Positions 18,001 to 21,000 of a DNA stretch of 64,000 nt are shown here, in pieces. Made by a program: the position numbers. Origin of the DNA: Escherichia coli (GTDB lineage Bacteria > Pseudomonadota > Gammaproteobacteria > Enterobacterales > Enterobacteriaceae); assembly GCF_003991155.1 (NCBI RefSeq), contig NZ_CP031297.1. One strand, given 5' to 3'. Each line of letters starts with the position of its first letter. The first letter of the stretch is position 1.

Positions 18001-21000
18001 AAAGTCATCAGTTGGCGATTCCTGGTCAAATAAGCGCTTTCACAAGCCGGTAGGCCTCGATGTATTGCTGGCCTGTACTGCGAGTAAGGTGCCTGAACAT
18101 CTGGTCGAAGAACTGAAAAGACGGGGCAGTTGATGCGTCTTTGAGCTTTGCACCCGAAAAGGGCAGTTTGAGCGTTCCTGTTCACACAGCTCTCGTGGAA
18201 CAATCAAAGTGAGGAGGGAATACCCTCCCACTTTCTCAGAGGCCTTCATTGAGGGTTGCTGAGAAAGTGAATTTTGTCCTCTCTGAGGGCGAAACGTGCG
18301 ATAGCTGGTCGCCAAAAACAAACAGCATTCAACCTCAGCCTAAGGGCGCACTGCGCCTGACAGGCTCTGTGTGCCCAAGTTACTTTAAGGAGCACACATG
18401 TCTCATCTGAACAATCTCAAATCCGTAATGATCTCTCTCGCCGCCGAACATAAGCTGCCTGAAATCTACCAGGATGACATCACTACCGATGTGGAGTCTC
18501 TGGATCGATTCGATGGTTTACGTCTGGTCTGGCTGTTGCGGTCTTGCGGCAGCGTATTGGTGCCAGCGGAAGTTGGCGTTAATCCGATCTATATCACCCA
18601 TTGGTTGTGGTCTAACCACGGTCAACAGGTGGTTCCATTCTCTGTGGATACCCGCACGGGGTTGATTGAAAAAATCGACTTCGAGCAAGCTGAAAAGCTG
18701 ATCATGCAGATGCCTTGCAACCTCTCTTCATTGCAGAACAAGGAATACTTGGTTGACCAGGTAAACCGAGTATTGCAACGAGGTTGTGAAATGCGTATCT
18801 GGGGTATCTTCGAGTCTCCAAGCTCGGTGGAATCCGTTGGTGGTTGGAAAGAGTGGCAGAGCTATTTCAGCTCTACTGGGAATCGACTGATGGCCGATTT
18901 CGTTGGTAAAGCCATTCGATTCACCAACCCTCGATAAATCGCCGTTCAACCATTAACCCTAATTAACCCTATGGGGCTCCGATAGCCCTGAGGGGACGGG
19001 GCTCCGCAATCGCAATAAGGAGTCCCTATGAAAAACCTATCAGCTTTGGAAGCAGTTCTTGACTACGACAAACCTTCTCGACGTTTTCTTGATGAGCTCA
19101 ACGAAAACCAGATGAAGGATTTGTCCGGGGAAATCTTCGCCAAGCTCTACTGGAGCAAGCGTAATCCCCAGTGGTACGAGAAAGACACCAATCGGCTGTT
19201 TGCACGACTTCGTTGGGTTCAGCGCATCATCAAGAAGCGCTTGAAAACCGGCAAGGTTAAACCTGAACTGACAGAAAATGGTTCAGTGATGGAGCGCTTC
19301 AACTTCCCTTATGGTGACACTCTCGATTTCTTCCATCGGTACTTGCGACATCCCAAATGGGAGGTTGTGTATCAAGAATCGGGGTGCAGTGCCTTTTGGA
19401 AAAATGAAGCAACGCTTGAGCTATGCACCTACTGCGAAGGTGATGTGGTCATGATGAAGGCTCCTGATGAAGCAACCTTCTTTCGTGATTGCAATCGCCT
19501 TAGCTGGTGGTATGCAGATAACGCTTGATCTTAATCCCTAACCAGGGGCGAACCGGCCCCTGATGGGAGCATGGTGCGCCCCATCTATGATGGAGGACGC
19601 CATGTTCAAATCATCAGTATGCTCCTACGAAAACAGGGGGCCTTACGGAAACAACAAGTACCGAGGCAACTGCTCGGGCTTTATCGTTAAAGACTTCATT
19701 GAGTCTTACATGAGAAAGCCGAACGGGCTGGTGGCAGACCCAAGTGTTGGGGGTGGCTCTAGCATCGACGTTGCCAATGAACTTGGTGTCCGTTTCAAAG
19801 GGACAGACTTGCATCAGGGGTTCAACCTGTTGCGGGATGACTTCCTTTCGTTCCTCGGAGAGCCTGCACACCTGATCTGGTGGCACCCTCCTTACTGGGA
19901 CATGATCCAGTATTCAGGTAAGCAGTGGGGCGAGCCCAACAAATGGGATATGAGCCGCATGAATTTGCCTGAGTTCGTTGAAGCCCTTGAGCTGGCCGTT
20001 ATGAATATTCATGACGCCTGTGAGCGAGGAGGGCATTACGGAATCCTCATGGGAAACCTGAGGCGCGATGGGGATTATTTCAACCTGTCCAGCCTTGTGG
20101 AACGTATCGCACCTGGGAAGCTGGTGGATGAGATCATCAAAACACAGCACAACTGTGTGAGTGACCGAACTCAGTATTCCGGGAAGCTGGTGCGTATCGC
20201 CCATGAAAAGCTGTTGGTGTTTCGTCGTAACGACGTTGCCTCATCGCTCTGTCTTCTTGCTGCCGTACACCGTCGAGCAACCAATATGGTTTCGACTACG
20301 TGGAAAGCTGCAATACGCCGAACCCTACAGGGGAAAACGTTGAAGCTGGAGCAGATTTACAAAGAGATTGAACCCTACGCAAAGCATCGAGAGAACAACC
20401 ACTGGCAAGCAAAGGTCAGGCAAGTTCTTCAAGATGCCAGGTTCTTTATTCGCATCGAGGTAGGTGTCTATGCACTTGCTGAGTAGCCCAACCGGGGCGT
20501 GACATCCCGGAGGGGATTGGTCGCGCTCATCAACAACAAAGGAGCGTGACCATGAACGTACAACTTCAAGCCAGCAACAATGTGCTGTTGGCGCAAATCG
20601 AAAGCAAAGGCCTCACTGTTGAAACGCATTGTCGCAGTGGCTTTTGTGGCATGTGCCGGGTTCGTCTACTCGAAGGTCAAGTGGCTTATGACGAGACGCC
20701 CATCGCATTTGTCAAAGAAGGGGAAGTGTTGGTTTGCTGCGCTAAAGCAAAAACCGATGTGACCTTGGAAATTTAACCCATCCGGAGGAGCCTTTCCTGC
20801 GGGTGGGGCTCCTCTATCCATTACGAGGAGAAACACTATGTCTATCAATACCAAAGTTGAACAAATCGCATACGGTCATGCTACCGCTCTAGTGCTCAGT
20901 GAACTGGGCCAACAAGAGAATTGGTGCAAGGCTTATGAGTATTTGTCTGAGTGTGTAGAACGGGGAGACGAACCTGAGGATCTGGTCGTTTGGCAACCGT

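Follow-up and report, generated by a model that had tools for sequence, protein, structure and literature searches.

We analyzed a stretch of 64,000 nucleotides of Escherichia coli DNA (contig NZ_CP031297.1; hereafter the window), in which one gene raises a question of function. Its product combines an AdoMet-binding-like loop, DPSVGGGSS, with the sequence WWHPPYW, and the histidine of this HPPY places it outside the canonical (D/N/S)PP(Y/F) motif of amino-methyltransferases. Is this protein an active methyltransferase, on which substrate would it act, and in which process? Direct translation confirmed the reading frame at 19602-20486 with both motifs. The gene and its transcriptional surroundings comprise the following features:

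17753..17782, + strand: strong intrinsic terminator (13-bp stem, then a T run) ending the upstream hde-DUF3150-VWA transcription unit
18146..18174, + strand: AcaCD-binding motif of the vcrx098 promoter, containing ACCCGAAAAGGGC; placed by offset from pVCR94 75267-75295 (Carraro 2014 supplement)
18398..21669, + strand: operon vcrx098-vcrx103, predicted by Carraro et al. and placed by gene order, with the methyltransferase gene third
19592..19596, + strand: Shine-Dalgarno sequence GGAGG, 5 nt 5' of ATG 19602, read directly from the sequence
19602..20486, + strand: methyltransferase coding sequence, 294 aa plus stop (dcm3 / vcrx100 / WP_000477209), from translation and database records

The window represents IncC plasmid backbone, and positions 19028-21227 are 100% identical to IncC plasmids. 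The gene vcrx100 of pVCR94 (76698-77597) maps onto window positions 19587-20486, and the mapping of vcrx098, vcrx099 and vcrx101 agrees (Carraro 2014 supplement). The same gene was named dcm3 (Wang 2019), and the frame counted from 19563 measures 924 bp, as dcm3 does in the literature. By sequence and position, the window gene is the published IncC gene dcm3/vcrx100, and hence it is not new. Public databases contain three forms of the protein (307, 299 and 294 aa), the two longer ones starting at 19563 (the 924-bp dcm3) and 19587 (vcrx100). The best start codon is ATG 19602, the one originally chosen, since GGAGG lies 5 nt upstream and the alignments of 293-295-aa homologues begin at residue 1-2. 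Database labels for this gene read either "DNA adenine modification methylase" or "hypothetical protein". The literature groups it with dcm1 and dcm2, which reside on the same plasmid backbone, as "three dcm genes". However, dcm1 and dcm2 are C5-cytosine methylases of the unrelated family PF00145, and published work demonstrated that the neighboring IncC C5 enzyme protects against EcoRII. The name dcm3 is therefore a misnomer, wrongly suggesting a cytosine-C5 enzyme.

Published expression data link this gene to plasmid transfer. An AcaCD ChIP-exo peak with its motif was found upstream of vcrx098, and the expression of vcrx100 fell from 422 in the wild type to 1 when acaCD was deleted and reached 1288 with AcaCD (Carraro 2014). 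Expression of dcm1 (vcrx109) likewise requires AcaCD (Carraro 2014). Our own scan of the window with the core AcaCD motif yielded 27 matches against 26 expected, i.e., no enrichment over chance, and we accepted the site at 18146..18174 for one reason, its coincidence with the published ChIP-exo motif.

We then examined the protein itself, in which translation, conservation and profile alignments delimit these elements of the catalytic and C-terminal domains:

19635..19670, + strand: N-terminal family-specific loop (aa 12-23), defined by conservation; aligns to the PF01555 profile just ahead of motif I
19737..19763, + strand: motif I, AdoMet-binding loop DPSVGGGSS (aa 46-54), from translation and profile alignments
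19806..19808, + strand: D69, motif II-like acidic residue after strand 2, 99% conserved
19878..19898, + strand: motif IV, catalytic loop WWHPPYW (aa 93-99), at the end of strand 89-94
20139..20228, + strand: C-terminal part of the catalytic domain, aligning with the corresponding region of beta-class methylases
20295..20483, + strand: winged-helix domain (aa ~232-294), from profile and structure searches of the C-terminus

The whole protein matched the Pfam family PF01555 (N6_N4_Mtase) in two stretches (33.2 bits, gathering cut-off 26.7; E = 6.5e-8), and PADLOC reported a MTase_II match (E = 4.5e-13). The NCBIfam search returned no family reaching threshold, and a PDB search with the single sequence gave no match. 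The profile of the family aligned in both halves with the solved beta-class methylase TTHA0409 (E = 9.3e-12) and also matched M.RsrI and M.MboIIA. In this alignment H95 stands opposite the serine of SPPYW in TTHA0409. On these comparisons, motifs I and IV are not chance matches. The AlphaFold model (pLDDT 94.9) presents a Rossmann methyltransferase fold in which strand 89-94 leads into H95-P-P-Y98 at the C-terminal end of core strand 4, and this block is modeled with a pLDDT of 98. The predicted structure thus combines the class I Rossmann fold with a motif closing core strand 4, as in the clade of amino-methyltransferases. Its nearest structures are (D/N)PP(Y/F) amino-methyltransferases: TrmN, Trm14, Trm11, PrmC and M.TaqI. 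The original prediction of a SAM-dependent protein resembling amino-methyltransferases, in which motif I comes before an (X)PPY motif IV, is thereby supported by PF01555, TTHA0409 and the model.

The conservation of the family bears directly on the unusual histidine. Conservation of H95 and Y98 is about 99% in the 82 homologues, the most distant of which share about 30% identity; G50 and D69 likewise reach 99%, and P97 reaches 90%. Position 53 is 96% conserved, with Thr in the family and Ser in the window protein, and motif I has the family consensus DPxxGSGT. The motif II-like role of D69 would be that of class I methyltransferases generally. In the N-terminal loop, R12, G13, G16, G22 and N23 are at least 90% conserved and G22 is invariant; in the C-terminal part of the domain K180, Q182, S187, Y192 and H201-E202 (within AHEKLLVF) are conserved. 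One homologue, P0140, carries an intein inserted one residue after HPPY, and another is fused to a NADAR (DarT1-antitoxin-like) domain. Our search of the literature for HPPY as a methylase motif, or for a characterized HPPY enzyme, found none; a published motif definition, [DNSH]PP[YFW], already admits His (PMC4738411). The histidine had been described as atypical: it is unusual among methyltransferases in general, but not within its own family, where the alignment identifies it as an invariant hallmark of a large group rather than a local defect. We rejected the reading of HPPY as a degenerate or pseudo-motif on this conservation of H95 together with the intein at the HPPY loop. These features (the conserved G50, D69, H95 and Y98, the intein and the admission of His by the published definition) suggest that methyltransferase activity is likely retained.

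The arrangement of the domain sets the protein apart from its closest sequence relatives. In the beta class, motif IV is N-terminal, motif I is C-terminal and the recognition region lies between them, whereas motif I precedes motif IV in the window protein. Residues 8-73 match PF01555 profile positions 150-214 and the HPPY half of homologues matches positions 2-110/144; similarly, family profile positions 37-70 correspond to TTHA0409 residues 228-263 and positions 88-227 to residues 39-190. Since the N-terminal stretch aligns late and the HPPY half early in both references, the two halves stand in swapped order. The protein shares with the beta class (PF01555; TTHA0409, M.RsrI, M.MboIIA) the fold, significant similarity in both halves, the motif I pattern DPxxGxG(T/S), the xPPYW catalytic loop and an HE-containing strand. 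It differs by a His in place of Asp/Asn/Ser as first catalytic residue and by the lack of an insert between the halves, with a C-terminal winged helix in its place. The gamma-class or unpermuted enzymes (M.TaqI; the tRNA m2G methylases Trm11, Trm14 and TrmN; PrmC) reach TM-scores of only 0.32-0.39 to the window protein, and the top structural matches among them act on RNA or protein. Neither Pfam nor the PDB profile search detected a relation to them at the sequence level.

In contrast to the original prediction, which saw no obvious target-recognition domain, we found that residues ~232-294 form a predicted winged helix. The isolated domain scored 25.7 bits for DpnI_C (PF17726), above the cut-off of 23, and 21.9 bits, under the cut-off, within the whole protein; 11 of 45 homologous C-termini also matched DpnI_C (best E = 3.7e-9). 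A Foldseek search with the C-terminal domain returned forkhead DNA-binding domains (TM 0.75-0.81) and the C-terminal domain of DpnI (TM 0.72). The last 65 residues, which exceed the DpnI_C cut-off and superpose on both, thus match a DpnI_C/forkhead-type winged helix by score and by fold. The C-terminal domain of DpnI binds methylated GATC. The helix-3 pattern W-x-A-K-V-R-Q-x-L resembles the forkhead pattern W-K-N-A-V-R-H-N-L. Here it is a methylase that carries the domain, instead of a nuclease or transcription factor. Across the family the recognition helix keeps the consensus NxxWxAKVRQxLQ, and its conservation, as opposed to diversification, suggests one common, possibly loose, specificity. 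A DpnI_C/forkhead-type domain and DNA methylases as sequence relatives indicate that DNA is the likely substrate.

The distribution of the family is predominantly plasmidic. We detected a homologue in 885 plasmid records, 783 of which are conjugative, and the family is also found on the gonococcal pConj and on plasmids of Pseudomonas, Halomonas, Lacticaseibacillus and Clostridium. The pConj homologue is 64% identical and lies at the end of a relaxase/traG/traF gene run in the same orientation. On IncC the gene adjoins the hde anti-restriction/anti-CRISPR operon, and in Pseudovibrio the homologue sits beside two dcm1-like methylases and an SSB gene. Distant homologues also occur on short metagenomic contigs, which provide no gene context. 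A phage origin was considered and rejected: PHROGs matches were weak. The phage collection itself returned only three matches, weak or irrelevant. No partner gene is conserved across the four loci compared (IncC, Pseudomonas, Pseudovibrio, Neisseria), where C5 methylases and SSB alone recur, and no linked restriction endonuclease or specificity gene is annotated nearby, as a restriction-modification system would require. The proposal of an orphan enzyme agrees with these loci, and that of an anti-restriction role gains support from its placement on conjugative plasmids among anti-defense genes.

Published methylomes and mutants constrain what the enzyme may do. SMRT sequencing of V. cholerae with and without pVC211 revealed neither a clean new motif for m6A or m4C nor a rise in total m6A. 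A set of 25 gonococcal methylomes, which includes seven from pConj-bearing strains, contained 12 motifs, each attributed to a chromosomal system. Of the two outcomes that the original prediction named as speaking against it, these SMRT data present the first (no attributable new motif), whereas the HMM assignment is still to a methyltransferase family. A constitutive, non-specific adenine methylase like M.EcoGII is ruled out in vegetative cells, because pVC211 did not raise m6A counts. A Dam-like GATC specificity masked by the host Dam would fit the V. cholerae result. It is unlikely, however, since gonococci with the 64% homologue mostly carry the methyl-GATC-cutting drg locus; the gonococcal paper discusses GATC methylation for two dam strains only, and its data imply that the strains with the homologue, with one exception, lie outside these two. 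Triple deletion of dcm1/2/3 abolished the transfer of pVC211, a result reported for the triple mutant only and without complementation. Dimitriu et al. knocked out a "dam" gene of pKAZ3, which we did not take as evidence on vcrx100, because the primers do not match the window and a different gene was therefore deleted; the "dcm3" of that study is the window's C5 methylase at 23614.

Taken together, we consider it somewhat probable that vcrx100 encodes a catalytically active orphan DNA amino-methyltransferase that is expressed with transfer and probably serves counter-restriction. Motif I (D46-S54) and D69 would bind AdoMet, and base flipping would bring the target base into the pocket where strand 4 ends, so that Y98 may stack on it there. 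The side chain of H95 and a Pro backbone carbonyl would serve as hydrogen-bond acceptors for the exocyclic amino group of this base (N6 of A or N4 of C), and H95 would take the job done by Asp, Asn or Ser in other enzymes. The winged helix may keep the enzyme on duplex DNA through its family-conserved recognition helix. Since transcription depends on AcaCD, the plasmid's master activator of transfer, the enzyme would be made in cells engaged in conjugation. Its most likely job would be to modify plasmid DNA around transfer so that it escapes cleavage by restriction systems in new hosts, working alongside the neighboring C5-methylases and the hde anti-defense operon.

We also regard as conceivable, if doubtful, that the HPPY/winged-helix family forms a distinct, mobile-element-specific class of transfer-coupled methyltransferases that leave something other than the usual m6A or m4C mark across a motif. 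Either only the plasmid or its transferred strand would be modified in the few mating cells, or the invariant His would fit the pocket to another acceptor atom or base. Such a class would explain why two SMRT studies of plasmid-bearing strains contain no attributable signal.

It seems unlikely that the enzyme has low sequence specificity and acts mainly on single-stranded or newly replicated plasmid DNA, leaving a mark confined to the plasmid in mating cells and never a genome-wide motif. The two SMRT data sets, the strict dependence on AcaCD and the conserved recognition helix with its possibly loose common specificity all fit this idea, and orphan methylases are prominent among plasmid anti-defense genes. 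There is also precedent: known plasmid methylases act on a single strand, at no more than ~40% of SAY sites, and protect the plasmid on entry. M.EcoGIX and M.BceJIII, single-strand-specific orphan adenine methylases encoded on plasmids, guard a conjugative plasmid as it enters and have no ordinary genome-wide motif. DpnA, the second DpnII methylase, is cited as a small single-stranded DNA methylase of the MboIIA/DpnA group protecting incoming DNA. The parallels are incomplete, however. The window protein, with only 45 aa before motif I, lacks an N-terminal ParB-like domain, and we found no polymerase-interacting domain either; M.EcoGIX and M.BceJIII are ParB-methyltransferase fusions. The window gene is regulated by AcaCD and not by leading-region ssDNA promoters. 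DpnA belongs to a restriction-modification locus, has no winged-helix tail and matches the window protein weakly, in motif I only (E = 0.09). Moreover, the winged helix is of a duplex-binding type and the pConj homologue follows the relaxase operon.

A DNA methylase devoted to plasmid transfer, replication or stability instead of counter-restriction appears rather improbable. Membership in the transfer regulon is compatible with such a role, plasmid loss was observed while the dcm deletions were constructed, the triple mutant failed to transfer even when E. coli SM10 was the recipient, and methylation influences the transfer of other plasmids even without restriction. However, the dcm genes did not emerge from the pVCR94 TnSeq as required for transfer, and the triple mutant was stably maintained.

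A substrate other than DNA, such as RNA (e.g., m2G or m6A in tRNA or rRNA), protein glutamine or a small molecule, with the winged helix used otherwise, had been left open by the original prediction and is disfavored here, with a low probability. The best structural neighbors in sequential order are tRNA m2G methylases and PrmC, a His replacing Asp/Asn/Ser could reflect a different acceptor, and published SMRT data hold no DNA methylation motif for the gene. Nevertheless, the structural ranking mainly mirrors topology, i.e., unpermuted order against the permuted beta class, while sequence homology points to DNA methylases (PF01555 and TTHA0409), the C-terminal domain matches DNA-binding winged helices, and the gene travels on mobile elements next to other DNA methylases. 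Finally, an inactive methyltransferase-like protein, reading methylated DNA through its DpnI_C-like domain or acting as a decoy for restriction enzymes, would accommodate that domain, the non-canonical motif and the absence of a detected methylation motif, but is very improbable given the near-invariant AdoMet-binding and catalytic-loop residues across a deep family, the intein at the catalytic loop and the usual loss of such motifs in inactive paralogues (METTL14 is described as disrupted; PMC4738411).

IncC plasmids have a very broad host range and rank among the major carriers of multidrug resistance, and vcrx100 is a conserved, transfer-co-regulated gene in their anti-defense neighborhood. 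Defining its target would complete the picture of how these plasmids cross restriction barriers, would show the chemical role of His in the (D/N/S)PPY pocket and may yield a methylase with an unusual specificity. Were its action limited to mating, the enzyme would represent a second kind of conjugation-coupled methylase, beside M.EcoGIX.

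The open reading frame predicted at 19602-20486 (+) was confirmed, with a product of 294 aa. The coordinates of the original prediction remain the best gene model, because alignments with homologues of 293-295 aa begin at the first residues of this form. Public records give three start codons for the same gene, at 19563 (307 aa), 19587 (299 aa) and 19602 (294 aa), and only the last combines a good ribosome-binding site (Shine-Dalgarno GGAGG, 5 nt upstream of the ATG) with agreement with homologue lengths. RefSeq lists the product, WP_000477209, as a "hypothetical protein"; older annotations call it a "DNA adenine modification methylase". 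The gene corresponds to "dcm3" (924 bp, no known conserved domain recognised; Wang et al. 2019, PMC6555945) and to vcrx100 of pVCR94 (PMC7498323; coordinates: Carraro 2014 supplement). Name and annotation thus predate this analysis, and plasmid-borne orphan methylases are a familiar type. Translation of the ORF (+) gives two motifs:

aa 46-54, +, DPSVGGGSS
aa 93-99, +, WWHPPYW

Pfam N6_N4_Mtase was matched above threshold (33.2 vs 26.7 bits), with aa 8-73 aligned to its C-terminal portion (profile positions 150-214). A profile built from 82 homologues matched the solved beta-class methylase TTHA0409 (E 9.3e-12): its positions 88-227 correspond to chain residues 39-190 (SPPYW onward) and positions 37-70 to residues 228-263 (motif I). 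On these alignments the protein is related in sequence to beta-class DNA amino-methyltransferases with its halves swapped, motif I lying ahead of motif IV, whereas TTHA0409 and other beta-class enzymes have the reverse order. The swapped order was also seen in homologues, and the AlphaFold model of the protein is confident (pLDDT 94.9).

The HPPY motif had been considered atypical. His is indeed rare at the first position, where TTHA0409 carries Ser, but it is no anomaly of this protein: xxHPPYx occurs in nearly every region-covering sequence among 270 retrieved relatives, and H95 and Y98 are each conserved in 99% of the 82 full-length homologues (identity as low as ~30%), with P97 in 90%. The same homologues conserve G50 and D69 (99% each) and a family-specific N-terminal loop (R12, G13, G16, G22 and N23); position 53 is Thr in 96% of the family and Ser in the window protein. 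Since the published clade motif, [DNSH]PP[YFW], includes His, this residue is a rare yet recognised variant; the target NH2 donates a hydrogen bond to the first residue (Iyer, Zhang, Aravind, PMC4738411). Our literature search for an HPPY enzyme found no describing paper. One homologue (P0140, 733 aa) contains a LAGLIDADG/Hint intein at residues ~108-531, which starts one residue past HPPY and stops short of the conserved MI(Q/T)YSG (junctions FSHPPYH|CLHPES and VHN|CMITYSG). Inteins typically sit at functionally critical conserved sites, and this placement argues that the HPPY loop is functionally important.

The view that the protein has no obvious target-recognition domain proved wrong. Residues ~232-294 form a winged helix of three helices and two strands in the AlphaFold model. 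DpnI_C scored 21.9 in the whole protein, just below the cut-off of 23, and 25.7 bits, above it, in the isolated domain. Among 45 homologous C-termini, 11 match DpnI_C (best 3.7e-9) and 11 match Forkhead; a profile of the domain retrieved forkhead domains (E 2e-6) and DpnI (2.5e-3). Modeled separately (pLDDT 85.7), the domain gave TM 0.75-0.81 against forkhead DNA-binding domains and 0.72 against DpnI on superposition. Helix 3 has the consensus NxxWxAKVRQxLQ across the family, and such conservation of the recognition helix suggests one common predicted DNA-binding mode rather than the range of specificities usual among restriction-modification methylases. The recognition helix of eukaryotic forkhead domains reads W-K-N-A-V-R-H-N-L, against W-x-A-K-V-R-Q-x-L in the plasmid winged helix (aa 232-294, window 20295-20483), a resemblance that may be relevant to the prokaryotic relatives of forkhead.

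Many IncC (IncA/C2) conjugative plasmids, from hosts that include Klebsiella, Escherichia, Salmonella and Vibrio, share region 19028-21227 at 100% identity. In all, 780 plasmid records match it (772 conjugative); one such record (H20) was typed as IncC, MOBH and MPF_F, and the annotation of pUMNK88 has coordinates identical to those of the window. Using tblastn, the protein was found in 885 plasmid records (783 conjugative), including 52 Neisseria gonorrhoeae conjugative plasmids (64% identity, MOBP/MPF_T) and plasmids of Vibrio, Halomonas, Pseudomonas, Oceanithermus (41%), Lacticaseibacillus (34%) and Clostridium botulinum (34%). Homologues were almost absent from phage records. On the gonococcal plasmid pConj, whose annotation contains no second methylase, the homologue is the final gene of a same-strand run after relaxase, traG, traF, topoisomerase III and a DUF5710 protein. 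Neighbours were not conserved across the loci compared, except for dcm1-like C5 methylases and SSB in Pseudovibrio, which suggests that the methyltransferase works without a dedicated partner.

Upstream of the gene are DUF3150 and VWA genes and, before them, the hde operon (AAA ATPase vcrx089, vcrx090, ssb, bet, exo), for which activity against Type I restriction and CRISPR-Cas has been demonstrated. The gene is followed on the same strand by a YfaE-like ferredoxin, small ORFs and a C5 methylase:

17753-17782, strong terminator upstream of the gene, ending the hde-DUF3150-VWA unit
23614-25239, +, C5-cytosine methylase (dcm1 of Wang et al., vcrx109; "dcm3" of pKAZ3 in Dimitriu et al. 2024)

Window ~18146-18174, which contains ACCCGAAAAGGGC, corresponds to pVCR94 75267-75295, where an AcaCD ChIP-exo peak with a motif was detected (Carraro et al.). 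Carraro et al. predicted an operon vcrx098-vcrx103, and their RNA-seq values for vcrx100 (wild type, 422; acaCD deletion, 1; AcaCD expressed, 1288) place the gene in the transfer regulon; the vcrx098 promoter gave no clear 5'-RACE signal. Within the leader of ~220 nt that separates the AcaCD box from the vcrx098 start is a GC-rich hairpin (GGAGGG-AATA-CCCTCC, 18209-18231). Sigma-70-like promoter matches are strongly depleted in window 8000-27000 (3 observed vs 13.7 +/- 3.2 expected from shuffles), which fits a long same-strand array with activator-dependent (AcaCD) promoters lacking a -35 box.

The CbbQ/MoxR-like anti-restriction ATPase vcrx089 (9743-10711) shares its same-strand run with a 598-aa VWA-domain protein (15940-17736), which has a long low-complexity stretch rich in Gln/Gly/Asn/Asp. 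MoxR-type ATPases usually have a VWA partner, and the VWA and DUF3150 genes may therefore be part of how vcrx089-090 counter restriction. The same-strand array also contains dispersed genes that resemble those of nucleotide metabolism:

20552-20776, YfaE-like 2Fe-2S ferredoxin (ribonucleotide reductase maintenance)
29996-30601, YfbR-like 5'-deoxynucleotidase
27066-29519, 817-aa PAPS-reductase-like protein

In a Pseudomonas plasmid locus with a 64% homologue of the methylase, the gene for the large subunit of a class I ribonucleotide reductase lies 3 kb downstream (14152-17016 of that locus).

The names of IncC methylase genes conflict among papers. The "dam" gene of the IncC plasmid pKAZ3, deleted with no effect (Dimitriu et al.), was rejected as a test of dcm3/vcrx100: its primers match nowhere in the window, so it is a different gene. 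Deletion of pKAZ3 "dcm3" led to ~2700-fold more EcoRII restriction (Dimitriu et al. 2024); the knockout primer tail exactly matches window 23592-23616, which identifies the EcoRII-protecting enzyme as the neighbouring C5 methylase. In V. cholerae with and without pVC211, SMRT sequencing found GATC and host Type I motifs unchanged, no rise in total m6A, and degenerate plasmid-specific "motifs"; dcm1, dcm2 and dcm3 were each deletable and viable, and the triple mutant, the only one assayed for transfer and without complementation, failed to transfer (Wang et al., PMC6555945). No dcm gene was required to escape restriction in V. cholerae O395 (Roy et al.). An orphan methylase occurs on pConj in 7/25 gonococcal strains (putative REBASE M.Ngo8107ORF11P and M.Ngo5289ORFAP), and all 12 motifs in these 25 strains were assigned to chromosomal systems (Sánchez-Busó et al.). 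We infer that this methylase is the 64% homologue found here. Dam-like GATC specificity, prompted by the DpnI_C-like domain, is unlikely given the gonococcal data.

The simplest account fitting all the evidence is an active orphan DNA amino-methyltransferase under transfer control. We lean, by a little over even odds, toward such a putative enzyme being produced only with the transfer regulon on, probably for counter-restriction; this restricted expression would explain the absent signature in bulk cultures. Action confined to the transferred strand or plasmid is a considerably less probable reading, a regulatory role is unlikely, and a non-DNA substrate slightly more so. That the protein is an inactive reader or decoy is very improbable.

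Three features appear not to have been reported before and lack an explanation: an invariant HPPY loop within a beta-class-related core of unpermuted order, the conserved forkhead/DpnI_C-type tail, and the persistent lack of a methylome signature. One homologue (P0217) shows a weak ASCH-domain match. Another (P0137, 459 aa) has a NADAR domain of the DarT1-antitoxin type (residues 24-137) fused N-terminally to the HPPY methylase. This fusion is a further hint of an anti-defence setting, and it would unite reversal of DNA ADP-ribosylation and methylation in a single protein.
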